From positions 25,041 through 89,040 of the forward strand of contig CAZHJU010000009.1 in assembly GCA_964533495.1 (NCBI GenBank): DNA of 64,000 nt. The letters are read 5' to 3'. This DNA comes from an uncultured Bordetella sp. (GTDB lineage: Bacteria > Pseudomonadota > Gammaproteobacteria > Burkholderiales > SG8-41). Shown piece by piece: positions 2,638 to 58,430 of the stretch. Position numbers and translations under genes: made by a program. Below the pieces are notes generated by a model. That model was not told the origin of the DNA. It made no database searches and worked only from the letters and a program-made list of their open reading frames with translations. The first letter of the stretch is position 1, and each line of letters opens with the position of its first letter.

Positions 2638-4881
2638 TCAGTCAAAAATGTAAATCGGGCTGGACCATGCCAGATGGCCGTCCTCCAGCGTCGCGCACAC
2701 GTACAGCGCATTGTCCCGCCCGGAAACAAGATCCAGCCTTCTCTCGATGTTCACGCGGCAATGGGAATTCCCGTCAGGCAGGCGGAATATCCTGATCCGG
2801 CGTCCGATGCCGCCGGCCTCGAAAACCAGGTCTTCACGCCCGATATCGGCGATGTTCACGCGCGCCTTGACCAAGGCCGTATCGATCTCGAGCGTGCCTG
2901 CCTGCGGATCCGACAGCCAGGCATCGAATCCTCCGAAACCGCCGGTCGTCAGGGCCGACCAGCGCACCGTCGCAGGATCGGTCTGAACGACCTTCCTGTC
3001 GAGATTCCACATGTTCACGGGAACGATCCGCTCGAAGCCGTTGCCCCCCAGCGAGCAGCTCCCGTCCCAGACGGTCTGCCTGCCGCGCCCCCTGTATTCG
3101 GCACCCTCCCAGACGACGCGGATGCGGCGGCCGAGCCGGTCTGCGGCGTAGGGCCGGAAAGTCTCCAGCGTCTCGAGGCGGTTCCGGATCTCGACACGTT
3201 CTATGGGCACTGAAGACAGGATATCCACATCCAGCGACACCGAGCGTCCGGCATGGCGCAGGATGTCCCCCATCATCGCCTCGCGGACGGCGCTGCACGC
3301 CGCCGGCCCCAGATTCGGATCCTGTTCGTGCAGCATCGCGTCCGTGTCGAAACGGGCCCGGACATCCAGCAACAGGCGGCATCCCGTCGTCGCATAGTGA
3401 TGGCGCCGCCGCAGCGCGTCGAAAATGTCCGCCCGGGTCAGCGATCGCGCCAGGATGCAGGACAGGCCGCCGTAGGCCCCGAACAGCGACGCGCCGGGAT
3501 GGCTGGCGCCGTGCCGCCCCTTGTGCCCGTCGCTGTTCGCCAGGATGCCGACGCGGTAGCCCTGCTCGAACGCATCATGCAGCAGCCATTCGAAGGTGCC
3601 CCAGTCGGAATGCACCTCGACCGCGCGCTCGATCCTCGCGTCGTGCGCCATCGCGATGTCCGCGTAACGCCCGCCGATATGGGCGAACACGACGCAGTCC
3701 TCCCCCTTCAGTGCCTCGAAGAGGTCTTCCGCGCTGTTCGCATCGCTGCCGACATCCGACAGATCCTCCACCAGGGCATGGTGCGAACGGTGGATCTGCC
3801 GCCCCTCATGCATGAACATCACGTTGCGGTCGCCGCCGAGCCCGGTGTTCCCGGACCATTCGTAGCCCGGAAAAATGACGAACGAGCCATCCCGGTTATA
3901 CTCGCGGGTCAGTTCATTGAGCTGCTCCCAGAACGCGGTGGTGATCTGGAAATCGTTGCCCTGGTGGCTCATCGCGTCGAGGAACGCGCGATCGCGGCCG
4001 AATTCGATCAGGTCGCGCGCCGGATTGGTGCCGATCGTCTCCTCGGACTGCCCGTGCAGATCCGCCCAGTACGGGAGCAGCGGCGACGACTCCACGATGC
4101 GCAGCGGATTGGAAACGCAGGCACGGGCTCCGTTTCCGTCGAACACCTCGATGACCAGGTCCCCGGGGGACTCCACGGAAAGATTGTCGATGGCTGTCGA
4201 ATACTCTCCGGCATGCATCTCCACGGTCGCCGGCAATCCCTTCACGTCGCGGTTCGCCTTCAGGGCAAAAGTCCCGGAAACCCGGTAACTGGGATTCCCC
4301 CACTGGTCCTCCCCCTTGAAGCCCAGCCTGAAGGTTTCCCCGGCACGACGCATCGTCGGCAGCACCGCCTTGTAGGCCACGGGAGGCCCCGCAACCACCG
4401 CGATCTGCGGCTGCAGCGGAAGCTCGACATAGCTGTAGGTGGCCCAGGCATCGACCAGCACGCGGAATTCGAACGTCGGCTCGTGGAAAGTCTGCACGCG
4501 GATTCCGGGCGACCCCTGCCGCCGGTCGCCGAAACGCACGATGATCCGGTCGCCCTCACGGAGAAATCCGCGCACGACACGGACAAACAGCGTCTTGTCC
4601 CACGGCCTGATGTTCATTTTGCCGTCGTACTTCACTTCCAGCACTGCACCGTTGCTCGCCTCGACCGTCGTGTAATTCCAGCCGCCCGGATCCGTGAACT
4701 GCGGCCGCCCCATGTCCGAGGCGAAACGGTGCACGATCTTGATCGATCCGGTGTCGTCGATGCCGAAATAACCGGCGGTATACGTCAACGTGAACGACTG
4801 GAAACTTCCGGCCTCGAATTCGCCCTGCGGGTCGATCCGGGCGCTGCCCATGCGTTCGGCCAGGTACGTGGAATGCGGCAT
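2638..4881 (-). CDS. large PHP-like / DUF3604-type metal-dependent hydrolase (tentative)
   Basis: 747 aa ORF. His/Asp-rich motifs YWADLHGQSEE, PGYEWSGNTGLGGDRNV, VHSDWGTFEW and ANSDGHKG resemble PHP-superfamily metal sites. The family assignment is from memory only. Confidence 0.45.
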   Translation of the reverse strand: MPHSTYLAERMGSARIDPQGEFEAGSFQSFTLTYTAGYFGIDDTGSIKIVHRFASDMGRPQFTDPGGWNYTTVEASNGAVLEVKYDGKMNIRPWDKTLFVRVVRGFLREGDRIIVRFGDRRQGSPGIRVQTFHEPTFEFRVLVDAWATYSYVELPLQPQIAVVAGPPVAYKAVLPTMRRAGETFRLGFKGEDQWGNPSYRVSGTFALKANRDVKGLPATVEMHAGEYSTAIDNLSVESPGDLVIEVFDGNGARACVSNPLRIVESSPLLPYWADLHGQSEETIGTNPARDLIEFGRDRAFLDAMSHQGNDFQITTAFWEQLNELTREYNRDGSFVIFPGYEWSGNTGLGGDRNVMFMHEGRQIHRSHHALVEDLSDVGSDANSAEDLFEALKGEDCVVFAHIGGRYADIAMAHDARIERAVEVHSDWGTFEWLLHDAFEQGYRVGILANSDGHKGRHGASHPGASLFGAYGGLSCILARSLTRADIFDALRRRHHYATTGCRLLLDVRARFDTDAMLHEQDPNLGPAACSAVREAMMGDILRHAGRSVSLDVDILSSVPIERVEIRNRLETLETFRPYAADRLGRRIRVVWEGAEYRGRGRQTVWDGSCSLGGNGFERIVPVNMWNLDRKVVQTDPATVRWSALTTGGFGGFDAWLSDPQAGTLEIDTALVKARVNIADIGREDLVFEAGGIGRRIRIFRLPDGNSHCRVNIERRLDLVSGRDNALYVCATLEDGHLAWSSPIYIFD

Positions 4882-4894
4882 TTCAGAAACTCTC

Positions 4895-5872
4895 CTAGTC
4901 CAGTTTGATGTTCTTCGACTGGATGACCCCGGCCCACTTCCCGACGTCAGCGCGGATGAACGCGGCGAAGTCGGCGGCCGACATCGGCGCCGGCTCCGAA
5001 CCGCCCTTCAGGAACCGGTCAGCGACATCCGCGGCGCCCAGGGCGGCCGCAAAGTGGCGGTTGAGGCCCGCGACACACTCCTGCGACAGGCCCTGCGGGC
5101 CGAGCAGCCCGTACCACTGGATGGCGCTGTATCCGGGCAATCCGCTTTCGGCGATCGCCGGCAGTTCCGGAAACAGCCTGGAACGCCCCGCGCCGGTCAC
5201 GCCCAGCCCCCTGAGCCGTCCCGCCTGCACGTGCGCGGACAATGTCGGGATCGCGGTGATGATCAGGGAAACATGCCCGGCCATCGTGTCGGTTGCCGCC
5301 GGCGTTCCGCCCTTGTACGGCACGTGGGTCATCTCGATTCCCGCGGCGTCCTGGAACAGTTCGGTGGCCAGGTGGCTGATCGAGCCGGCACCGTTCGTGG
5401 CGAACAGGAGCTCCCGCGGCTTCGCCTTCGCAAGCGCGACCAGCGCCTTCACCGAACGCGCCGGCAGCGAAGGATGCACCGCCAGCATCAGCGGCGCGGT
5501 CGCGATCATCGCGATCGGCGAAAAGTCCTTCAGCGGATCGTAGGGAGGCTTCGACATCATGGCCGGAATGACCGAAAAGTTGCTCGACGTCGCCAGCGTC
5601 ACGGTCTGGCAGTCAGGCGCCGCCGCCGCGGCACTCTGCGCCCCGATCAGCCCGCTGGCACCGGGGCGGTTTTCAATGACCAGACTCCGGCCGGCGCGTT
5701 CGGACACTGCCGGACCGACGATGCGCATCAGGATGTCAGCCCCGCCGCCCGCCGGAAAGGCGACGATCACCCGCAGCGACTTCGATGCGGCACCCTGCGC
5801 CATCACGGCAGCCGGAAAAGCGCAAACCGCCAGCACCCCTGCACACAACAACCATCGAGTAGTAGGCCTCAT
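4895..5872 (-). CDS. Bug-family tripartite tricarboxylate transporter substrate-binding protein (TctC-like)
   Basis: The start is trimmed to the ATG at 5872 (MRPTTRWLLCAGVLAVCAFPAAVMAQG signal peptide). Family motifs seen are VIVAFPAGGGADI, NRPGASG, YKGG and the IKLD tail. Confidence 0.85.
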   Translation of the reverse strand: MRPTTRWLLCAGVLAVCAFPAAVMAQGAASKSLRVIVAFPAGGGADILMRIVGPAVSERAGRSLVIENRPGASGLIGAQSAAAAAPDCQTVTLATSSNFSVIPAMMSKPPYDPLKDFSPIAMIATAPLMLAVHPSLPARSVKALVALAKAKPRELLFATNGAGSISHLATELFQDAAGIEMTHVPYKGGTPAATDTMAGHVSLIITAIPTLSAHVQAGRLRGLGVTGAGRSRLFPELPAIAESGLPGYSAIQWYGLLGPQGLSQECVAGLNRHFAAALGAADVADRFLKGGSEPAPMSAADFAAFIRADVGKWAGVIQSKNIKLD

Positions 5873-10673: not shown

Positions 10674-10837
10674 GCGCGGACGACCGGTCTCTCGATGCAC
10701 GGGATGGACCGGGCGGGCAGGATGATGCCGGCGGAATATCCGGCGCGGTTCATCTTTTTTCACCCTGCCCACCCCGCCCATCCCGCTGATTTTTCCTCAA
10801 GGCATTTTTCCTCAAGGCGATTCAATCCCGATCATCC

Positions 10838-12958
10838 ATGACGACCCTGCCCGGCACCGCCCCCGACCTCTCCCGCCTGCTCGACCCGCGCGGCGTCGCC
10901 GTCATCGGCGCCTCCACCGATCTCTCGCGCATCGGCGGCCAGCCGATCAGGCTGCTCACCGAATACGGCTACCGGGGCAAGGTCTATCCGGTCAACCCGA
11001 AATACACGGAGGTCAAGGGGCTCCGCTGTTATCCCGACGTCACCGCGGTGCCGAAACCCTGCGACGTCGCGCTGATCGCGGTGGCGGGCCACCTGGTGCC
11101 GGGGGCGATCGAGCAGTGCGGCAAGGCCGGCATCCCCTTCGCCGTGGTGCTGTCCGCGGGATTCGGCGAGGCCGGCGAGGCCGGCAAGGCACTCAACGAC
11201 AGGCTGCTCGCCGCGGTGAAAACCAGCGGCGTGCGCATCGTCGGGCCGAACTGTCTCGGCCTGATGAACCTGGACGCCGACTTCCGCCTCGGTTTCGGCG
11301 GCACGCTGCAGCTGAAAACGCTGAAACCCGGCCCAATCGCCATGGTCACCCAGTCCGGCGGCTTCGGCTTCGGCGTGGTCGCCGTCGCCTGCTATTACGG
11401 ACTCGGCTTCAACCACGTCGTTTCCACCGGCAACGAGGCCGACCTCACCGCGCTCGACTGGATGGAACACCTGATCGAGCGTCCCGACGTCGAAATCCTC
11501 ACCGCCTTCCTCGAAGGCACCACCGAGGGCGGGCGCCTGCGCCGGCTCGGCGCGCGCGCGCTGGAGCTGGGCAAACCGGTGCTGGTCTGGAAGGTCGGCA
11601 ACACCGACGTCGGCAGCAAGGCCGCGACCTCGCATACCGCGCGGCTGACCGCCGGTTACGAACTGTTCCGCGCCGCGTTCCGGGAAGGCGGCTTCATCGA
11701 GGTGCAGGACGTCGACGATCTCGTGGATTACTGCAAGGCCTTCCGCGCGCGCAAGCTGCCGAAAGGCCGGGGCGTCGGCGTGATGACGCTGTCCGGCGGC
11801 GCCGGCGTGCTGCTCGCCGACCGCTGCGTGGCGCGGGGACTCACCCTGCCGCGGCTTGCCGATGCCACGCGCGAGAAACTGCGCGGCATCGTCGTCGCCT
11901 ACGCCTCCATCGAGAACCCGATCGACACCACCGCGCAGGGCTACAACGACAACTTCGCCTCGTACACCAAAACCATGCGCGAGGTGCTCGCCGATCCCAA
12001 CATCGACGCCATCGTCGCGCGCGCGCCGCGCGGCAGCGTGGCGCAGGCCTGGGCCGAGGGCTTGGTGGAGATGCTGAAAGCCACCGACAAGCCGCTGCTG
12101 CTGAACTGGCCCACTTCGCCCGACGACAACCGCGGCGCGATGGACTACCTCGAGAGCCACGGCGTGCCCTGCATCCTCGCTCCGGGACGCACCGTCGACG
12201 CACTGGCCGCGCTGAACGGCTTCGCCGCCAAGAAGCGTGAATTCGAGGCCCGGCGCGCCCGCGGCGGCAAACGCGCGATCGCCCCGCAGAAGCTGGATCC
12301 GCAGGGTTCGGGCACGCTGGGCGAGCGCGCCTCGAAAGCCCTGCTCCAGGCCTACGGCATCCCGGTCACCGGCGAAAAGCTGCTGGCGCCGGAGGCGGTG
12401 GAAAAACTCGCCGCCGCACCGCTGCCATTCCCGCTGGCGGTGAAAATCGAATCCGCGGACATCCCGCACAAGACCGAGGCCGGCGTGATCCGGCTGAACG
12501 TCACCAGCCTCGACGGCCTGAAGCAGGCCGCGCGCGAGGTGCTCGCCGCGGCGCGGGCGTACAAGGCCGATGCGCGCATCGACGGCATCCTGGTGCAGCA
12601 GATGGCCACCGGCGAGGAGGTCATCGCAGGCGCGGTCAACGATCCGCATTTCGGCCCGCTGATCGCGGTCGGGCTCGGCGGCGTGTTCACCGAAATCATG
12701 CACGACGTCACCCACCGCTACGCGCCCTTCGACGCCGAAACGGCGAAAGCGATGATCCATGAAATCAGGGGCGTGAAGCTGTTGCAGGGCTACCGCGGCA
12801 GGCCGGCCTGCGACATCGACGCGCTGGCCGATGCGCTGTCGCGGCTGTCGCTGCTCGCCGCGGACCATGCCGGCCGCATCGCCGAGATCGACATCAACCC
12901 GCTGTTCGTCAACGCCTCCGGCGTGGTCGCCGCCGACGCGCTGGTGGTGCTCAAATGA
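10838..12958 (+). CDS. ADP-forming acyl-CoA synthetase family protein (CoA-binding + ATP-grasp domains)
   Basis: 706 aa. N-terminal CoA-binding region (PRGVAVIGASTDLSRIGG...VYPVNPKY), succinyl-CoA-ligase-like middle region and a C-terminal ATP-grasp region. Confidence 0.8.
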   Translation: MTTLPGTAPDLSRLLDPRGVAVIGASTDLSRIGGQPIRLLTEYGYRGKVYPVNPKYTEVKGLRCYPDVTAVPKPCDVALIAVAGHLVPGAIEQCGKAGIPFAVVLSAGFGEAGEAGKALNDRLLAAVKTSGVRIVGPNCLGLMNLDADFRLGFGGTLQLKTLKPGPIAMVTQSGGFGFGVVAVACYYGLGFNHVVSTGNEADLTALDWMEHLIERPDVEILTAFLEGTTEGGRLRRLGARALELGKPVLVWKVGNTDVGSKAATSHTARLTAGYELFRAAFREGGFIEVQDVDDLVDYCKAFRARKLPKGRGVGVMTLSGGAGVLLADRCVARGLTLPRLADATREKLRGIVVAYASIENPIDTTAQGYNDNFASYTKTMREVLADPNIDAIVARAPRGSVAQAWAEGLVEMLKATDKPLLLNWPTSPDDNRGAMDYLESHGVPCILAPGRTVDALAALNGFAAKKREFEARRARGGKRAIAPQKLDPQGSGTLGERASKALLQAYGIPVTGEKLLAPEAVEKLAAAPLPFPLAVKIESADIPHKTEAGVIRLNVTSLDGLKQAAREVLAAARAYKADARIDGILVQQMATGEEVIAGAVNDPHFGPLIAVGLGGVFTEIMHDVTHRYAPFDAETAKAMIHEIRGVKLLQGYRGRPACDIDALADALSRLSLLAADHAGRIAEIDINPLFVNASGVVAADALVVLK

Positions 12959-51835: not shown

Positions 51836-52300
51836 AGCCCGCATCTTAAACGCAGGCAGCATCTCGCCGCCGAAGACGACACGCTGGCGCTGGGTCGCGC
51901 GCTGGCGCCGCTGCTCGAGCCGGGCATGGTGCTGCATCTGCGCGGCGACCTCGGCGCCGGCAAGACCACGCTGGCGCGGGGCATCCTGCGCGGGCTGGGC
52001 CACGAAGGCCGCGTCAAAAGCCCGACCTATACCCTGGTTGAACCTTATCAATTTTCTAGGTTATACTTGTATCACTTTGATTTTTATCGGTTCCTTGATC
52101 CCGAGGAACTGGAGGCCAGCGGCTTCCGGGAATACTTCAATCCCGAATCCGTATGCCTGGTCGAGTGGCCGGAAAAAGTGCCGGACCTGCCTGCCGCCGA
52201 CCTGGAAATCAGCCTGCGTCCTGAAAAGCAGGGACGCACGATTGAGATCACGGCGCACACGGAGGCTGGCAGGCGTTGTCTCGACAAACTGACATACTGA
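51830..52300 (+). CDS. tsaE: tRNA t6A37 biosynthesis ATPase TsaE
   Basis: GDLGAGKTTLARG P-loop and SPTYTLVEPY...LYHFDFYRFLDPEELE match the TsaE/YjeE signature. There is no in-frame ATG upstream of the P-loop, so a TTG at 51830 is the best candidate start. It abuts the queG ATG on the other strand. Confidence 0.75.
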   Translation: MHSPHLKRRQHLAAEDDTLALGRALAPLLEPGMVLHLRGDLGAGKTTLARGILRGLGHEGRVKSPTYTLVEPYQFSRLYLYHFDFYRFLDPEELEASGFREYFNPESVCLVEWPEKVPDLPAADLEISLRPEKQGRTIEITAHTEAGRRCLDKLTY

Positions 52301-53640
52301 GACCCGTCATCCGCTGCGCGGCATATGCGCCGCATGCGCCCCGTTTTTTCCGCACGCTGCTGCAATTCCTCAAGGCCTGCATCGCCAGCCTGCTGATGGC
52401 CGCGCCCGCGTGGGCCGCCGAAACGCTGGTGACCTCGACCCGGGTCTGGCCGGCCCCGGACTACACCCGCGTCACCATCGAATCGCAACAGCCGGTCAAG
52501 CACACGCTGTTCAGCCTCGACAATCCCGACCGCCTGGTGCTCGACCTCGAGGACGTCGCGCTGGGCGCGACGCTGAACGACATCGCCGGCAAGATCAGCG
52601 CCGAGGATCCCTACATCAAGGGCGTACGCGTCGGCCGCTTCAAGCCGGGCACGGTGCGCCTGGTGTTCGACCTGAAGGCGAAAATCAAGCCGGAAGTGTT
52701 TGCACTGGCGCCGATCGGCGAGTACGGCCACCGGCTGGTGCTCGACGTCTATCCGCTGGAACCGCCGGACCCGCTGCTCGCCTTTCTCAGGAACCGCGAG
52801 CACCGTCACGCCGAGCCGCCCGCGGCGGCGACCGCACCGGAACCCCCGGCGCCCCCGGTCGCCAGGGTCGATCCGCCCGCCACCACCAAGCCTGCCCCGC
52901 GCGCGGCACGCCCGCCATCGGAACGGCTGATCACCATCGTCATCGATGCCGGCCACGGCGGCGAAGACCCGGGCGCCCGCGGCCGCCGCGGCACGCTGGA
53001 AAAGCACGTGACGCTGGCGATCGCGCAGAAACTGAAGAACCGCATCGACAGCGAGCCCAACATGCGCGCGGTGCTGACCCGCGACGGCGACTACTTCATT
53101 CCGCTGCACATGCGCGTGGCCAAGGCGCGGCGGGTGCGCGCCGACCTGTTCGTGTCGATCCATGCCGATGCCTTCGTCAAACCCTCGGCCAACGGCTCCT
53201 CGGTGTTTGCGCTGTCCGAGCGCGGCGCCACCTCCGCCGCGGCAAGCTGGCTGGCCAAGCGGGAAAACGACGCCGACCTGATCGGCGGCGTCAACCTCGG
53301 CATCCAGGACCCGTACCTGAAACAGACCCTGCTCGACCTGTCGCAAACCGCGTCGATCAACGACAGCCTGAAGCTCGGCAAGGCGGTGCTGCAGGAGATG
53401 GGCGGCATCAACCGCCTGCACAAGAACTACGTCGAACAGGCCGGCTTCGCAGTGCTGAAAGCGCCGGACATTCCCTCGATCCTGATCGAGACCGCCTTCA
53501 TCAGCAATCCCGACGAGGAAATGAAGCTGAAGAACCCGGCCTACCAGAACAGGATGGCGGACGCGATCTTCACCGGGATCAAGCGCTATTTCGCGCAGAA
53601 TCCGCCGCTGGCGCCGGCCCAGGTCGCCGCCACGCCCTGA
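52276..53640 (+). CDS. N-acetylmuramoyl-L-alanine amidase (AMIN domain + Amidase_3), AmiB/AmiC-like
   Basis: It has an AMIN-like segment (VRVWPAPDYTRVTIES...LVLDLEDV), a Pro-rich linker, and a catalytic domain (IVIDAGHGGEDPGA, SIHADA, ETAFISN). The start codon is uncertain (TTG at 52276). Confidence 0.8.
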   Translation: MSRQTDILRPVIRCAAYAPHAPRFFRTLLQFLKACIASLLMAAPAWAAETLVTSTRVWPAPDYTRVTIESQQPVKHTLFSLDNPDRLVLDLEDVALGATLNDIAGKISAEDPYIKGVRVGRFKPGTVRLVFDLKAKIKPEVFALAPIGEYGHRLVLDVYPLEPPDPLLAFLRNREHRHAEPPAAATAPEPPAPPVARVDPPATTKPAPRAARPPSERLITIVIDAGHGGEDPGARGRRGTLEKHVTLAIAQKLKNRIDSEPNMRAVLTRDGDYFIPLHMRVAKARRVRADLFVSIHADAFVKPSANGSSVFALSERGATSAAASWLAKRENDADLIGGVNLGIQDPYLKQTLLDLSQTASINDSLKLGKAVLQEMGGINRLHKNYVEQAGFAVLKAPDIPSILIETAFISNPDEEMKLKNPAYQNRMADAIFTGIKRYFAQNPPLAPAQVAATP

Positions 53641-53717
53641 AAACCGGCGACGACCCGGCATTGCACTAGAATAAGGCCCACAGATGCGCAACCATGCGCA
53701 CGGGCCGGAGGGGAAAC

Positions 53718-54506
53718 ATGGGGATTGTTCTGCGTGCCGCCACCGTGGCGGCGCTGGCATTGCTTGCGGCCTGCGCCGCGACGCCTGACGGCGGCGCACC
53801 GGACACGGTGACGCCGGCTCATGTCCGGAGTTTCTCCGGGCACCCCCCGGGCGAGGCGCTGCCGCAGGGCTGGCGGCCATGGACGCTGTCCCGCTTCAAG
53901 CGCCCCACCGAATACCGGCTGGTCGATGACCGGGGCCGCACCGTGGTGCATGCGCGCGCCGACGCCTCGGCCTCCGGGCTGGTGCATCCGCTGCGGCTCG
54001 ATCCCGCCCGATATCCGCTGCTGCAATGGCAGTGGAAGGTCGACGCACTGGTGGACAAGGCCGACAACGCGCAGAAACACCTGGAAGACGCGCCGGCGCG
54101 GCTGGTGGTGAGCTTCGACGGCGACATGGACAGGCTGCCGCTGCAGGACCGCATGTTTTTCGACAACGTGCGCCTGCTCACCGGTCAGCAGATGCCGTAC
54201 GCGACGCTGATGTACATCTGGGGCAACCGCGCGCCGCGCGAATCGCTGATCCACAACCGCCACACCTCGCGCGTACGCATGATCGTCGTCGACTCCGGCG
54301 CCGAGCGGCTCGGCGCATGGCAGCCGGTGACGCGCAACGTGCTCGAAGACTACCGCCGCGCCTTCGGCGAGGAACCGGGCCGCATCACCGCGGTGGGCAT
54401 CATGACCGACACCGACAACACCGGCGAGCAGGCGCATGCCTGGTACGGCGACATCAGCTTCGGCAGGGCACCGGAACCCCCGGTCGTTGCAACCAAAGAT
54501 CGGTAA
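53718..54506 (+). CDS. DUF3047-like protein (lipoprotein signal)
   Basis: The ATG at 53718 gives MGIVLRAATVAALALLAACA. The EYRLVDDRGRTVVHARADASASGLVHPLRLDPARYPLLQWQWKV pattern is as I recall for DUF3047. Confidence 0.55.
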   Translation: MGIVLRAATVAALALLAACAATPDGGAPDTVTPAHVRSFSGHPPGEALPQGWRPWTLSRFKRPTEYRLVDDRGRTVVHARADASASGLVHPLRLDPARYPLLQWQWKVDALVDKADNAQKHLEDAPARLVVSFDGDMDRLPLQDRMFFDNVRLLTGQQMPYATLMYIWGNRAPRESLIHNRHTSRVRMIVVDSGAERLGAWQPVTRNVLEDYRRAFGEEPGRITAVGIMTDTDNTGEQAHAWYGDISFGRAPEPPVVATKDR

Positions 54507-54586
54507 TGTTCGGAACTGCCAAAACAACAAAACAGACCATATCTTGGACAATTATCCCCACGACATCGGGTGCGGGGTAACAATAA

Positions 54587-54620
54587 GAAGAAAAAAGAAA
54601 AGGGCCTCCGAAGAGGCCCT
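54587..54620. terminator. bidirectional intrinsic terminator (ends the tracrRNA on -, and the DUF3047 gene on +)
   Basis: GAAGAAAAAAGAAAA-GGGCCTC-CGAA-GAGGCCC-TTTTGT. It forms a 7-bp GC stem and is U-rich on both strands. Confidence 0.75.
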
Positions 54621-54698
54621 TTTGTATCGGTGTCGTAGGGCCTAAGCCCACGACTTGTTGCCGACAGTCCCCACCATCGGAACACTTGATACGGCGAC
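54590..54698 (-). ncRNA. tracrRNA of a type II-C CRISPR-Cas9 system
   Basis: The minus strand reads GTATCAAGTGTTCCGATGGTGGGGACTGTCGGCAAC. This is complementary to repeat positions 1-33, with 24 contiguous matches and an internal bulge. It is followed by AAG, the hairpin GTCGTGGGCTTAGGCCCTACGAC, and the terminator GGGCCTCTTCGGAGGCCCTTTTCTTTTTT. The ends are approximate. Confidence 0.8.
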
Positions 54699-54699
54699 C

Positions 54700-54728
54700 A
54701 TCGTAGCCAAGTTACCGCGAGGAGGCAA
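54700..54728 (-). promoter_or_regulatory. candidate sigma70 promoter for the tracrRNA
   Basis: The minus strand has TTGCCT (54728..54723), a 17-nt spacer and TACGAT (54705..54700). This places the start about 7 nt downstream, at the beginning of the anti-repeat. It overlaps the cas9 RBS region on the other strand. Confidence 0.4.
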
Positions 54729-54732
54729 GACC

Positions 54733-56190
54733 ATGAATTACCGATTGGCTCTGGATATCGGCACAGCGTCTTGTGGGCTTATTGCCATCAAGCTTGATAA
54801 AAATCATGAACCCTCAGAAATAATTCACCATAGCCTGCATATTTTCTCGGAGCCGGTATTGCCACATGCAGCCGGCGAAACAGGGGAGCCCAAGAAAGCC
54901 GGCAGGCGCAAAGCACGTCTTGCCCGGCGCAACATAGACCGCCGCGCAAGACGTCTGCGACGCATCGCGATGCTCGCCAACCTCTTGGATCTTGATCACA
55001 AAACAATCCCCGCAGACAAAGGGCAGCATATCCACGAAGTTCGCGCATACGCCCCTCAAAAAAGAATTGAGCTGGATGATCTTGTACGGGTATTTTTAAA
55101 ACTTGCAAAACGACGAGGTTATGCCGGCGGATTCAGAACAAAAGCGGACAAACAAAAAGACGAAGACAGCGGCGTTGTCCAACCTGGTATTGAGAAATTG
55201 CAAGAAGCCATGAAAGCGGCTGGCTGCAAGACCGTTGGCCAATACCTCAGCCATCGTTTCAGCAATGGAGAGACACTAAAACTCAAAGAGGCTGGACTTT
55301 ATACTCATCGCGATATGCTCGTCGGGGAATTCGAAGCCATATGGACAGAACAAGAAAAACATTACCCCATACTGCGAGAATCACGCTCCGATCCCGTCGC
55401 AAAGTTCGCTGATGGCAAAGAAAAAACCCGCCCCCTTCGGGAGCAGTTTCGAGAAGCGATCTTTTATCAACGCCCACTGAAATCGATAGCACCAATGGTG
55501 GGAAATTGCGCCTTGGAAAAAAGTCTTCCGCGCGCACCGATGGCGCAACCAGCCATGCAGGCTTTCCGGATTGAAAAGCAGTTGGCTGATTTGCGCTGGG
55601 GCATGGGACGGTCGGCTCAGCCACTGACCTCCGAACAAAAATCCCTTATCCGAGACATGCTGAATGACCCGGACCAAGTCACGAAAGACGGGAAGCTGAC
55701 ATTCAAGAAGGTTTATACAGCACTAGAGAAAAGAGGCTTGATGCCGGCAACCCGCCGCTCACTTAACATGGAACGCTCGAGTCGAGAAGAACTTTATGGC
55801 AATCGCACGCTTCGCGCCATGCGTGATCTTGATGCCATAGAACAATGGCTCGCCTTTGATTTGACGACACAGATACGCATCATCAATTTCCTGGCTAACC
55901 TGGGTTCACCGGAACAGGTTGATTTACCTGACTGGCAAGACCGCTTCACCAAGCGCAAACGCGTCAAAAACCCCAAAACAGGTCGCTGGGAAGAAAAATA
56001 TGAAAAGCGGGATTTGGACAAAAACCTCGTCAGCTTCGTCAACAAACTGGTCGAAAACGGGAAATTCGGTAGGCTCGGCGATATGGGTTTTGAGTCAGGT
56101 CGCGCCAGTTATTCGATACGCGCACTGGATAAGCTGACAAGCAAGATGCTGGATACCAGTTGCGACGAGCACGCCGCAATCCAGGCCTGC
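54733..56190 (+). pseudogene. cas9: cas9 5' remnant (RuvC-I, bridge helix, REC-like region; about 486 codons) fused in frame to the CRISPR array
   Basis: GGAGG RBS. MNYRLALDIGTASCGLIAI is the RuvC-I D-I-G-T motif and KKAGRRKARLARRNIDRRARRLRR is the Arg-rich bridge helix. The ...GRASYSIRALDKLTSKMLDTSCDEHAAIQAC segment resembles the region just before RuvC-II in II-C Cas9. The frame then reads through repeat/spacer sequence to a stop at 56301. No HNH, RuvC-II/III or PI domain is present. Confidence 0.8.
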
Positions 56191-56825
56191 TATCAAGTGT
56201 TCCGATGGTGGGGTGTCGGAACAGTTCGATGTGCCTTACGTGAGGGCGGACAGAGTGTATCAAGTGTTCCGATGGTGGGGTGTCGGAACTGGCTATTGTG
56301 AAATTGCTGTATGGGACGAGAGTGTATCAAGTGTTCCGATGGTGGGGTGTCGGAACTCGGGGGCATGTGTTCTTATACCGCCTTGTGAGTGTATCAAGTG
56401 TTCCGATGGTGGGGTGTCGGAACGATCTGGTGGGCTTTGTGTTCAAAGGATTCGAGTGTATCAAGTGTTCCGATGGTGGGGTGTCGGAACCATCACAAAC
56501 GCCCATCTCGTCGCCATCAGGAGTGTATCAAGTGTTCCGATGGTGGGGTGTCGGAACATGCTCGTTCAAACGCTCGACTGGCGGGCGGAGTGTATCAAGT
56601 GTTCCGATGGTGGGGTGTCGGAACAAATGCGCGTGTCCCCGTTATCGAGGGTTTGAGTGTATCAAGTGTTCCGATGGTGGGGTGTCGGAACGCCCTGCCT
56701 GCGGCATCGGCGGCGCGGAACGAGTGTATCAAGTGTTCCGATGGTGGGGTGTCGGAACGGAATGCCTCTATAGCCCAGTGCGTGAATAGAGTGTATCAAG
56801 TGTTCCGATGGTGGGGTGTCGGAAC
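56191..56825 (-). CRISPR. CRISPR array, 10 repeats (37 nt) and 9 unique 30-nt spacers
   Basis: In the canonical orientation (minus strand) the repeat is GTTCCGACACCCCACCATCGGAACACTTGATACACTC. Full copies start (plus-strand coordinates) at 56253, 56320, 56387, 56454, 56521, 56588, 56655, 56722 and 56789, an exact 67-nt period, and all are identical. The copy at 56191..56222 lacks the last 5 nt (CACTC). The orientation is inferred from the GTT start, the tracrRNA strand and the repeat-end -10-like box. Confidence 0.95.
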
Positions 56826-56828
56826 GGG

Positions 56829-56870
56829 CTGCCTCAAAATCAGCGGATAAATCCGCTGATTTTGAGGCAG
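56829..56870. repeat. perfect 20-bp inverted repeat flanking the array
   Basis: CTGCCTCAAAATCAGCGGAT-AA-ATCCGCTGATTTTGAGGCAG. It begins 3 nt after the last repeat and has no adjacent T-tract. Confidence 0.9.
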
Positions 56871-57226
56871 CGCGCTACGCGCGCGTTTAGCAGAATGAAT
56901 ACCCCCCCCCCTCCCTATCTTTCGCACATCGCCCTACTCCACTAAAAAACATTGCGCTCTTGCAGGACAGTCGCAACGGCACGCTAAATGTCATCTTCGT
57001 TATTGGCGAAACCCAGCGACATCCAGATGCTGCCGTCCTTGATGCTGACACGATATTTTCCGCGCAAGCTCTCCATCAGCGCGCCTGCTTCCGGCACTGC
57101 GAAGCTGACGATCTGCACTCGCCTCGATGTTGCCAAGTCCGACCAACATGATGAAGCAGGTGCTGTCGCGCAGCACCCAGAAGTCAAGGAAATTCGGGTT
57201 ACCACCCTCGAAGCGATGCACGCGGC

Positions 57227-57763
57227 TCAGGCCGCAGCCCGCTCCTGCTCCATGGCCAGCACGTTCGCCGCGGCGGCGACCGCGGCGGCGATGCGGCCGA
57301 CGTCGCGCAACTGGGTGACGGTCATGCCGATGTCCTTCAGCAGCCGGTAGTGCGAACCGACGCAGAAATGGCATTTGCCCACGATGCTCGCCGCCAGCGC
57401 GAAGAGCTCGAAGCGCCGCTTGTCGACGCCGCCGTGCGTCGCGTAGGCGTTCATCCGCAGTTCCGCGCGCTGCGTCTTCAGATCCTCGTCGCCGGCCATC
57501 TCGACGTACGGATACCAGACGTTGTTCATGCCCATCAGCGCTGCCGCGGTCAGCGCGGCGGTCGCGTCGGCCTCGGCCAGCGCGCCGGAGCCGCGGATGG
57601 CGTTGACGATAGGGCCGCACTTCGCCGCATAGGCCGCGGCCAGCGCCGCGCCCAGCGCATCCGCCGGCTCGAGACTGGAGCGCGCGATCGTCGCGTCGAG
57701 GTTCAGGCGCACGTCCTTCGCGTAATCCGGAATGCGCGCCTTGATGTCGTTCAGAAATTCCAT
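57227..57763 (-). CDS. ahpD: alkyl hydroperoxide reductase AhpD (carboxymuconolactone decarboxylase family)
   Basis: 178 aa. MEFLNDIKARIPDYAKDVRLNL..., with the CxxC active site in GKCHFCVGSH. It lies downstream of ahpC. Confidence 0.9.
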   Translation of the reverse strand: MEFLNDIKARIPDYAKDVRLNLDATIARSSLEPADALGAALAAAYAAKCGPIVNAIRGSGALAEADATAALTAAALMGMNNVWYPYVEMAGDEDLKTQRAELRMNAYATHGGVDKRRFELFALAASIVGKCHFCVGSHYRLLKDIGMTVTQLRDVGRIAAAVAAAANVLAMEQERAAA

Positions 57764-57872
57764 GTCCGTTCCCCGTATTTCCTGTGTTGTTTCCTGTGTT
57801 ATTTCCCGCGTTGTTCCCTGCGTCGGGCGGCACCAGCCGCTGCCGGCACCGCCCCGCTACATCGCTTCGGTA

Positions 57873-58430
57873 TCAGGCCGCCTTCAGCACGTCGCCGCCG
57901 ACGGCACGGTTGCAGGGGCACAACTCGTCGGTCTGCAGGCCGTCGAGGATGCGCAGCACTTCCTGCGGATTGCGCCCGACGTTGAGGTTGTTCACCGACA
58001 CGTGCTGGATCACGTTGTCCGGATCGACGATGAAGGTCGCGCGCAGCGCGACGCCGGCCTCTTTCTCGCGCACGCCCAGCTGGTCGACCAGCGAGCCGGT
58101 GACGTCGGCGAAGGACCAGTGGTTCAGGCCCTTCAGGTCCTTGTGGTCGCGCCGCCAGCCGAGCTTGCAGAATTCGTTGTCGGTCGAGCCGCCGAGCAGC
58201 ACCGCGTCGCGGTCGGCGAAGTCCTGCGCCAGCTTCGCGAAACCGGTGATCTCGGTCGGGCAGACGAAGGTGAAGTCCTTGGGCCAGAAATAGATGATCT
58301 TCCATTTGCCGGGGAAGGACTTCTCGGTGACGGTCTCGAACGCCGATTCGCCTTTCTCCTCGTGCTGGTTGAAGCCGGGCTTGACGCCGGTGACGGTGAA
58401 GGCTTCGAGTCGGTCGCCTATGGTTTTCAT
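57873..58430 (-). CDS. ahpC: peroxiredoxin AhpC (2-Cys)
   Basis: ATG at 58430 (MKTIGDRLEAFTVTG...). Peroxidatic motif DFTFVCPTE and a resolving Cys in ELCPCN. The 267-aa track ORF has a spurious N-terminal extension. Confidence 0.9.
   Translation of the reverse strand: MKTIGDRLEAFTVTGVKPGFNQHEEKGESAFETVTEKSFPGKWKIIYFWPKDFTFVCPTEITGFAKLAQDFADRDAVLLGGSTDNEFCKLGWRRDHKDLKGLNHWSFADVTGSLVDQLGVREKEAGVALRATFIVDPDNVIQHVSVNNLNVGRNPQEVLRILDGLQTDELCPCNRAVGGDVLKAA

Follow-up and report, generated by a model that had tools for sequence, protein, structure and literature searches.

We analyzed a 64,000-nucleotide (64-kb) stretch of DNA, called the window throughout, from an uncultured Burkholderiales bacterium. 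In it, the first part of a cas9 gene runs directly into a CRISPR array, next to a gene for a trans-activating CRISPR RNA (tracrRNA). The features at the center of this analysis, numbered from the first letter of the window, are the following, where pLDDT is the predicted local distance difference test score.

about 54588..54700, minus strand: tracrRNA, with anti-repeat, nexus-like hairpin, and terminator
54733..56192, plus strand: cas9 remnant, codons 1-487, covering RuvC-I, the bridge helix, and the REC lobe
56191..56192: deletion junction, a TA common to cas9 codon 487 and repeat positions 6-7
56193..56301, plus strand: array-encoded 35-amino-acid (35-aa) tail and stop codon of the fused reading frame, a translation without homology and with pLDDT < 50
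56191..56825, minus strand: CRISPR array, 9 intact repeats of 37 nt plus 1 truncated repeat, separated by 9 unique spacers of 30 nt

The open reading frame (ORF) that spans the first part of cas9 and the start of the array (54733-56301, plus strand) begins with an ATG at 54733, ends with a stop codon at 56299-56301, and encodes 522 aa; the sequence GAGGAGG sits 7 nt 5' of its ATG. A preliminary description of this DNA, made from its letters alone, had claimed a Cas9 N terminus behind a strong ribosome-binding site (RBS) and called for a profile or structure search, and the searches identify the product as Cas9 from RuvC-I to the REC lobe. The NCBIfam Cas9 profile TIGR01865 matched with an E value of 2.2e-50, but over model positions 1-394 of 1070 only, while the Pfam family Cas9_a (PF18470, the alpha-helical/REC lobe) matched aa 253-493 (E=3.3e-27), and all 27 of the 27 PDB sequence matches were Cas9 proteins, mostly of type II-C. 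An AlphaFold2 model built from 20 homologues had a mean pLDDT of 78.7, with residues 491-522 below 50, and a Foldseek search with this model returned Nme1Cas9, AceCas9, GeoCas9, and other Cas9 proteins with E values down to 2.6e-17. The best matches by both sequence and structure were the II-C enzymes GeoCas9, ThermoCas9, Nme1Cas9, and HpaCas9. The RuvC-I motif LALDIGTASCG and the bridge helix RRKARLARRNIDRRARRLRR are both present, and together with the Cas9_a match they agree with the earlier reading of RuvC-I, a bridge helix, and a REC-like stretch. An alignment to GeoCas9 puts residue 487 where the REC lobe ends, with RuvC-II about 50 residues farther on. Of a full Cas9 effector, which has RuvC-I, RuvC-II, RuvC-III, and HNH, the locus in the window encodes aa 1-487 only.

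The fusion of cas9 to the array was correctly recognized in the preliminary description, but its counts of 486 cas9 codons and a 36-residue tail become 487 and 35, since Tyr 487 still belongs to Cas9. The array-derived tail of 35 aa is predicted by the model to be disordered. We attach no special meaning to its being fused in frame, because the array has no reading frame and 35 codons to a stop is within chance. Within the cas9 remnant there is also an antisense terminator-like hairpin with a T-run (55446-55428, minus strand; CTGCTCCCGAAGGGGGCGG GTTTTTTCTT), and the number of such hairpins is within chance for the region (2 found versus 2.8 expected).

The array is the only one in the 64-kb window. 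Its nine intact repeats, which start at 56253, 56320, 56387, 56454, 56521, 56588, 56655, 56722, and 56789, are identical and 37 nt long (GAGTGTATCAAGTGTTCCGATGGTGGGGTGTCGGAAC), whereas the repeat at 56191-56222 lacks its first 5 nt (GAGTG). In having identical repeats of about 36 nt and unique spacers of about 30 nt, it is built as a type II-C array is. The crRNA (CRISPR RNA) sense is probably the minus strand (repeat GTTCCGACACC...TGATACACTC), judging from the strand of the tracrRNA anti-repeat and from the motif TGnTAnnnT at the 3' end of the repeat, also conserved in those of three distant relatives (contigs L001, L002, and L003). The 3' end of the minus-strand repeat is TGATACACT, and those of related arrays are TGATATTAT, TGATATCCT, and TGTGATACAAT. 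Repeat-embedded crRNA promoters have been described for Neisseria and Campylobacter II-C arrays (PMC5965381), and by analogy TGATACACT may represent an extended -10-like box of a repeat-internal promoter; a generic sigma-70 scan gave no hit.

The tracrRNA is encoded on the minus strand and has the anti-repeat and terminator expected of a type II-C tracrRNA, with the anti-repeat at about 54693-54657, a nexus-like hairpin at about 54655-54631, and a terminator hairpin at 54623-54598 followed by a U-tract. The duplex between the anti-repeat and repeat positions 1-33 has a computed energy of -60.6 kcal/mol, compared to -25.0 +/- 3.4 kcal/mol for 500 shuffled repeats. A search of positions 54300-57300 against Rfam found no family at the gathering threshold, and the subthreshold hits Atu_C8 and SpF25 are hairpin look-alikes. 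Of the earlier statement that the tracrRNA, its terminator, and ten identical repeats are intact, the part on the RNA gene and its terminator holds, while the repeats number nine intact and one truncated.

The genes that would complete the system are missing. When the C-terminal 609 aa encoded by an intact allele of this cas9 (described below) were compared to the 64-kb window by tblastn, no cas9 3' half was found, and three Cas1/Cas2 pairs from relatives likewise found no cas1 or cas2 there (best E=0.08 over all these queries). These results agree with the previously claimed absence of RuvC-II/III, HNH, the protospacer-adjacent motif (PAM)-interacting domain, cas1, and cas2, and they leave the window without the two adaptation genes, cas1 and cas2, of type II-C.

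This gene also occurs in an intact version. Clustering at 90% identity groups the 522-aa product with a single other protein, P0060, which is a Cas9 of 1096 aa encoded on contig L005 from sequencing run SRR16798009. This contig carries the DUF3047 gene that also neighbors the window's locus, the tracrRNA, and a cas9 whose domains include Cas9_a, HNH_4, and RuvC_III, and it stops 82 nt (27 codons) into a cas1-like gene. Over residues 1-487, P0060 and the window product are identical (487/487 aa). At the nucleotide level, positions 1-2717 of L005 match window positions 53476-56192 at 2716 of 2717 nt, with one mismatch at 53562, and the tracrRNA region is identical in the two. The intact protein has LALDIGTAS at residue 5, IIVELSR at 536, EHILPRS at 618, and HHLIDA at 804, and both it and its orthologues have the II-C catalytic residues, namely, the RuvC-I D, the RuvC-II E, the HNH H, and the RuvC-III H/D. 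The position of IIVELSR also shows that a comparison to Neisseria Cas9 had aptly placed the break at the segment preceding RuvC-II. In the HNH motif of this Cas9 clade, the residue pair is E-H (EHILPRS, P0060 residue 618), which is conserved in all five relatives examined and differs from the D-H form that is usual in Cas9.

Comparison of the two alleles places the junction to the nucleotide. The intact allele reads ...GCCTGCTA/CCCGCC, the window reads ...GCCTGCTA/TCAAGTG, and the repeat reads GAGTGTA/TCAAGTG, where the slash marks the junction. Past GCCTGCTA, the intact allele continues with CCCGCCTCC, a Pro-rich linker that is followed by the RuvC-II motif at residue 536, while the window goes on with TCAAGTGTTCC, equal to the repeat from base 8 onward. 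We searched the intact cas9 for repeat-like sequence and found none; the junction partners overlap by TA only.

The deleted allele was also recovered from sibling runs, whose contigs we reached by an exact look-up of the flanking AmiC and AhpD proteins. Contig L019 (SRR16797977) is identical to window positions 52060-56220 at 4161/4161 nt and passes the junction by 28 nt. Contig L016 (SRR16797981) carries ahpC, ahpD, the right flank, one repeat, and the cas9 remnant with an equal junction, and it differs from the window by three single-nucleotide polymorphisms (SNPs) in ahpC (57905, 57906, and 57923). It corresponds to window positions 55760-56222 joined to 56794-58037, with a single truncated repeat and no spacers, which could reflect either collapse of the array in assembly or a further-contracted allele. 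Since intact and deleted alleles with identical flanks occur in sibling runs, the event must be very recent and still polymorphic. The identical intact allele strongly supports the earlier proposal that the 3' half of cas9 was lost very recently, together with cas1-cas2, through a deletion that ends in a repeat. That description had also considered that full-length cas9-cas1-cas2 might turn up here in a corrected assembly; a sibling sample does have full-length cas9 with the start of cas1, though this is a second allele that coexists with the deleted one rather than a correction.

We recovered the ancestral gene order from orthologous loci. A scan of metagenome contigs with the repeat core matched four contigs, among which L012 and L015 overlap via a common first spacer and represent one locus and L013 represents a second. 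In both, the order is amiC, DUF3047, tracrRNA, cas9, cas1, and cas2, then a short hairpin ahead of the array and a long one behind it, so the syntenic comparison between DUF3047 and ahpD that had been suggested does reveal full cas9-cas1-cas2 in orthologous loci. The cas9 products of these loci show 87-89% aa identity and are 1092-1096 aa long, the arrays have the identical 37-nt repeat in the window's orientation, and the first repeat lies within about 45 nt of cas2. Gene order and repeat orientation are equal in the distant relatives L001-L003. Type II-C is defined by the presence of cas9, cas1, and cas2 only (PMC5965381). In the orthologues these genes and no other cas genes precede the array, and L005, which ends inside cas1, has the same arrangement as far as it extends. 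The intact locus can be typed from its gene content as II-C because cas9, cas1, and cas2 are its only cas genes. The ratio of nonsynonymous to synonymous substitution rates (dN/dS) among orthologues is 0.06-0.11 in both halves of cas9, and this similar purifying selection suggests that the full-length protein is the selected unit. A compact Cas9 clade with a full length of about 800 aa, suggested by several homologues of 796-847 aa, was rejected, since the intact allele and orthologues are 1092-1096 aa; most of the 796-847-aa homologues sit on short contigs of 4-7 kb. A scan of species representative genomes with the full Cas9 found no relative.

Relative to these loci, the deletion is co-linear and removed at least about 3.09 kb, computed with the gene lengths of L013, plus 67 nt for each repeat-spacer unit lost. 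The window's nine spacers have none in common with the other arrays, and because no window spacer recurs there, the exact right breakpoint cannot be placed among the repeats.

On this evidence, we conclude with high confidence that the window records the recent, polymorphic decay of a genuine type II-C CRISPR-Cas9 locus by one deletion. In its normal state the locus has a divergent tracrRNA gene followed by cas9 (1096 aa), cas1, and cas2, with one hairpin before the array and another after it. One co-linear deletion then joined cas9 codon 487 to repeat position 6-7 over the TA microhomology, taking with it RuvC-II, HNH, RuvC-III, the PAM-interacting C terminus, cas1, cas2, and the hairpin between cas2 and the array. 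The 522-aa ORF is an accidental by-product. A microhomology of 2 nt points to illegitimate recombination, replication slippage, or end-joining as the probable route. Mis-integration or disintegration by Cas1-Cas2 was considered as a cause of the junction and appears unlikely, since the breakpoint lies 5-7 nt inside the repeat and not at its border. Given the gene content that was lost and the established roles of those parts, the locus should be able neither to cleave targets nor to acquire spacers. Transcription of the tracrRNA and crRNAs from promoters of their own may continue, and these RNAs would then lack the full Cas9 that normally stabilizes them.

Several points weigh against this interpretation or limit its detail. 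The junction and the alleles rest on assembled contigs and not on reads, and the window contig and L019 may stem from one run, which leaves L016 as the only clearly independent haplotype. The recovered part of the intact strain stops short of its array, so the size of the deletion is given as a minimum only. An uninterrupted ORF with a good RBS, next to RNA genes that are intact, would be equally expected if the fragment were in use. Finally, transcription of the tracrRNA and crRNAs and instability of the fragment are inferences only.

The alternative that survives best accepts the deletion and concerns its spread: the allele may have risen because loss of Cas9 was beneficial, by escape from self-targeting or by uptake of mobile elements, and not through neutral decay. 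Loss of cas genes is a well-known way out of CRISPR autoimmunity or of a block to plasmid uptake. The deleted allele is not rare, having been recovered in two runs and on a long contig of a metagenome-assembled genome (MAG), and the absence of the locus from sister lineages (see below) would fit a beneficial loss. In contrast, the nine remaining spacers had no match in the 64-kb window or the fetched loci, the whole array had only chance-level matches of 23-27 nt (E >= 0.1) in phage and plasmid collections, and the 22-nt cores of spacers 1, 2, 3, and 9 had no exact match in IMG/VR. As a test of self-targeting this comparison is weak, since it covered the nine remaining spacers against the window and the fetched loci. 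We consider a beneficial loss possible but unlikely.

A second alternative, raised in the preliminary description, is that the fragment of RuvC-I, bridge helix, and REC lobe was selectively kept, with its tracrRNA and crRNAs, as a nuclease-less guide-binding protein that acts as a sponge, a dominant-negative factor, or a regulator. The ORF is uninterrupted and has a good RBS, the tracrRNA is intact along with 9 crRNA units, a folded REC lobe is predicted by the model, the deleted allele is seen in two runs, and the lobe alone is reported to bind a single guide RNA (sgRNA). In addition, engineered split-Cas9 uses the alpha-helical lobe as a separate polypeptide, which assembles with sgRNA (Wright et al. 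2015, as cited in PMC4824121). Against these points, the 1460-nt remnant shows zero differences among the window, L019, and the intact L005. With zero substitutions, there has been no time for either selection or decay to show, and an intact ORF, tracrRNA, and repeats are simply the default. For the same reason, the dN/dS analysis of the remnant across strains that had been proposed as a test would have no differences to work on. The last 35 aa come from reading through into the array and have pLDDT < 50, the RuvC-I strands have lost their partners RuvC-II and RuvC-III, and the nearest sister lineages lack the locus.

A recurrent natural half-Cas9 would have favored such retention. A homologue search returned 59 homologues, many of which are 430-540 aa long with a REC domain only. 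We inspected three of the about eight half-size homologues on long contigs (L001, L002, and L003, one of them from Methylolobus aquaticus GCA_054172105.1). In all three, frameshifts divide what is otherwise a full cas9, and the rest of the gene, cas1, and cas2 follow immediately downstream; we rejected a recurrent half-Cas9 on this basis. The split cas9 genes, each in 2-4 ORFs with cas1, cas2, and arrays intact, lie at the following positions.

L001, 8001-11264: split cas9
L002, 8001-11237: split cas9
L003, 7344-10674: split cas9

These splits could be either real pseudogenes or sequencing artifacts, and irregular spacing in the L001 array suggests long-read indel errors. No stand-alone half-Cas9 in a diverged genome came from the 59-homologue search, and exact copies of the truncated form occur only in the window's own strain. 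Thus, retention of a guide-binding half-Cas9, as the preliminary description had offered it, is very improbable. We regard as extremely improbable its more specific form, in which the fragment loads tracrRNA:crRNA as a nuclease-free RNA-guided or sequestering factor (a dominant-negative "anti-Cas9" or regulator) and the allele is rising for that reason. If it were true, a dominant-negative "anti-Cas9" could let cells tolerate incoming DNA that carries the same II-C system.

The last alternative holds that metagenome assembly created the join between cas9 and repeat, as a chimera or a collapse, and that the full locus is present in the real genome. It has hardly any probability left: the genome is probably a MAG (its closest relatives all are), CRISPR arrays often break or collapse in assemblies (the L016 array being a single repeat), and an intact allele is present in a sibling run, but a 2-nt overlap and an intact cas9 with no repeat-like sequence offer no k-mer overlap for a collapse, and the identical junction occurs in contigs of two independently assembled runs, one with distinct SNPs. 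De Bruijn assemblers cannot build junctions from k-mers absent in the reads, and k-mer collapse cannot make this junction because its partners overlap by only 2 nt. The junction is not an assembly artifact, and the deleted and intact alleles are both real in one sample series.

A recent deletion of a once complete locus is also the setting in which we place the surrounding sequence, whose features are as follows.

53694..54506, plus strand: DUF3047 gene, left host flank, the same neighbor in the intact allele and the orthologous loci
54470..57221: low-GC segment, the whole remaining CRISPR locus plus a gene remnant, missing from sister MAGs L006 and L020
56826..56873: long perfect hairpin right after the last repeat, with a stem of about 20 bp
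56871-56886: GC palindrome GCGCGCTACGCGCGCG, adjoining the post-array hairpin
56951..57218, minus strand: class-V-aminotransferase-like 3' remnant of about the last 120 codons, frameshifted and with an in-frame stop, abutting ahpD
57227..57763, minus strand: ahpD (CMD family), right host flank

The segment at 54470-57221 has a GC content of about 50-56%, compared to 65-75% in its flanks. In the two sister MAGs, which have about 93% nucleotide identity to the window, homology stops at 54469 and resumes at 57222. At the empty site (L006 8635-8731 and L020 about 10753-10851), DUF3047 and ahpD are about 100 nt apart and separated by unrelated high-GC filler. The DUF3047 genes of L006 and L020 have a different C terminus, and the ORF called in L020 is 316 aa long and overlaps ahpD. 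Since this C terminus is altered compared to all other relatives, the sequences favor the view that the sister lineages lost the locus rather than never having had it.

The aminotransferase remnant was found by tblastn of the 382-aa protein of L015, which matched in two frames (E=4e-14 and 6e-7); intact copies of the gene are present in L007, L008, L009, and L015. In the CRISPR-less relatives L007, L008, and L009, this gene lies directly after DUF3047 in convergent orientation, and in L012+L015 the CRISPR-Cas locus lies between DUF3047 and the aminotransferase gene. The remnant marks a second, older deletion or rearrangement that joined the site to ahpD. Because this adjacent gene is also truncated, we judge the cas9 deletion to be one step in the erosion of the locus.

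The hairpin after the last repeat is part of the CRISPR locus and is kept in L013 and L015 with compensatory changes, and its computed energies at the three loci are -46.0, -34.1, and -46.5 kcal/mol. In the crRNA sense it lies upstream of the array, where it may act as a terminator or insulator against read-through or as a leader-like element. Intact loci carry another conserved hairpin, GCCGCTAATTCAATGAATTAGCGGC, which separates the stop codon of cas2 from the first repeat (L012, 14748-14776; L013, reverse strand, about 4885-4913). This cas2-array hairpin was removed by the window's deletion, so transcripts of the cas9 remnant and of the crRNA strand may collide. To the right of the array flank is a C-rich run, ACCCCCCCCCCTCCC, at 56903-56916, and there is a similar run, AACCCCCC, in L015. 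Two Logan contigs, L017 and L018, end near it (at window positions 56886 and 56910), and the run may be an obstacle to sequencing or assembly.

The intact allele and its orthologues resemble the known II-C systems, such as those of Nme1Cas9, GeoCas9, and Campylobacter jejuni, in consisting of cas9, cas1, cas2, and a tracrRNA and in having 36-37-nt repeats and 30-nt spacers in the intact loci. The TGnTAnnnT box at the repeat 3' end resembles, at the motif level only, the repeat-embedded promoters of the Neisseria and Campylobacter systems (PMC5965381). In contrast to these systems, the effector in the window lacks residues 488-1096, and cas1 and cas2 are gone; moreover, this Cas9 is only about 17-20% identical to the solved Cas9 proteins in structural alignments. 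The remnant is comparable to the polypeptide of bridge helix and REC lobe used in engineered split-Cas9, to which it adds orphan RuvC-I strands and a junk tail. In split-Cas9, the REC-lobe polypeptide takes part in an sgRNA complex only together with the nuclease lobe, which is needed in trans (Wright et al. 2015, as cited in PMC4824121), whereas none is encoded in the window.

A further parallel is the decay of CRISPR loci in nature. As in decaying loci and orphan arrays elsewhere, an array and its RNA genes can persist after the cas genes are gone, and the locus is present, partial, or absent in close relatives. In 'Ca. Endomicrobium trichonymphae', II-C loci have decayed, being split or pseudogenized, between genomovars that are 98.6% similar (PMC5174739), so there too near-identical strains differ by loss or pseudogenization of cas genes. 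The present case differs in that the ancestral allele and the breakpoint are available at single-nucleotide resolution and the alleles coexist in one sample series. It also differs in its host, since 'Ca. Endomicrobium trichonymphae' is a genome-reducing endosymbiont, while the titles of the MAGs suggest that this uncultured Burkholderiales bacterium is free-living and environmental.

Taken as a whole, a single recent deletion at a microhomology explains why half a Cas9 is fused to its own array, and the case gives no ground for pursuing a new class of REC-only Cas9. One site provides ancestral, deleted, and empty versions of an immune locus, with the breakpoint known to the nucleotide, and these nucleotide-resolved alleles could serve population studies of the rate at which immune loci are lost and of the selection that acts on them. 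P0060 and its orthologues form an uncharacterized clade of II-C Cas9 proteins with a defined tracrRNA and repeat, which may be of interest for the mining of Cas9 orthologues.

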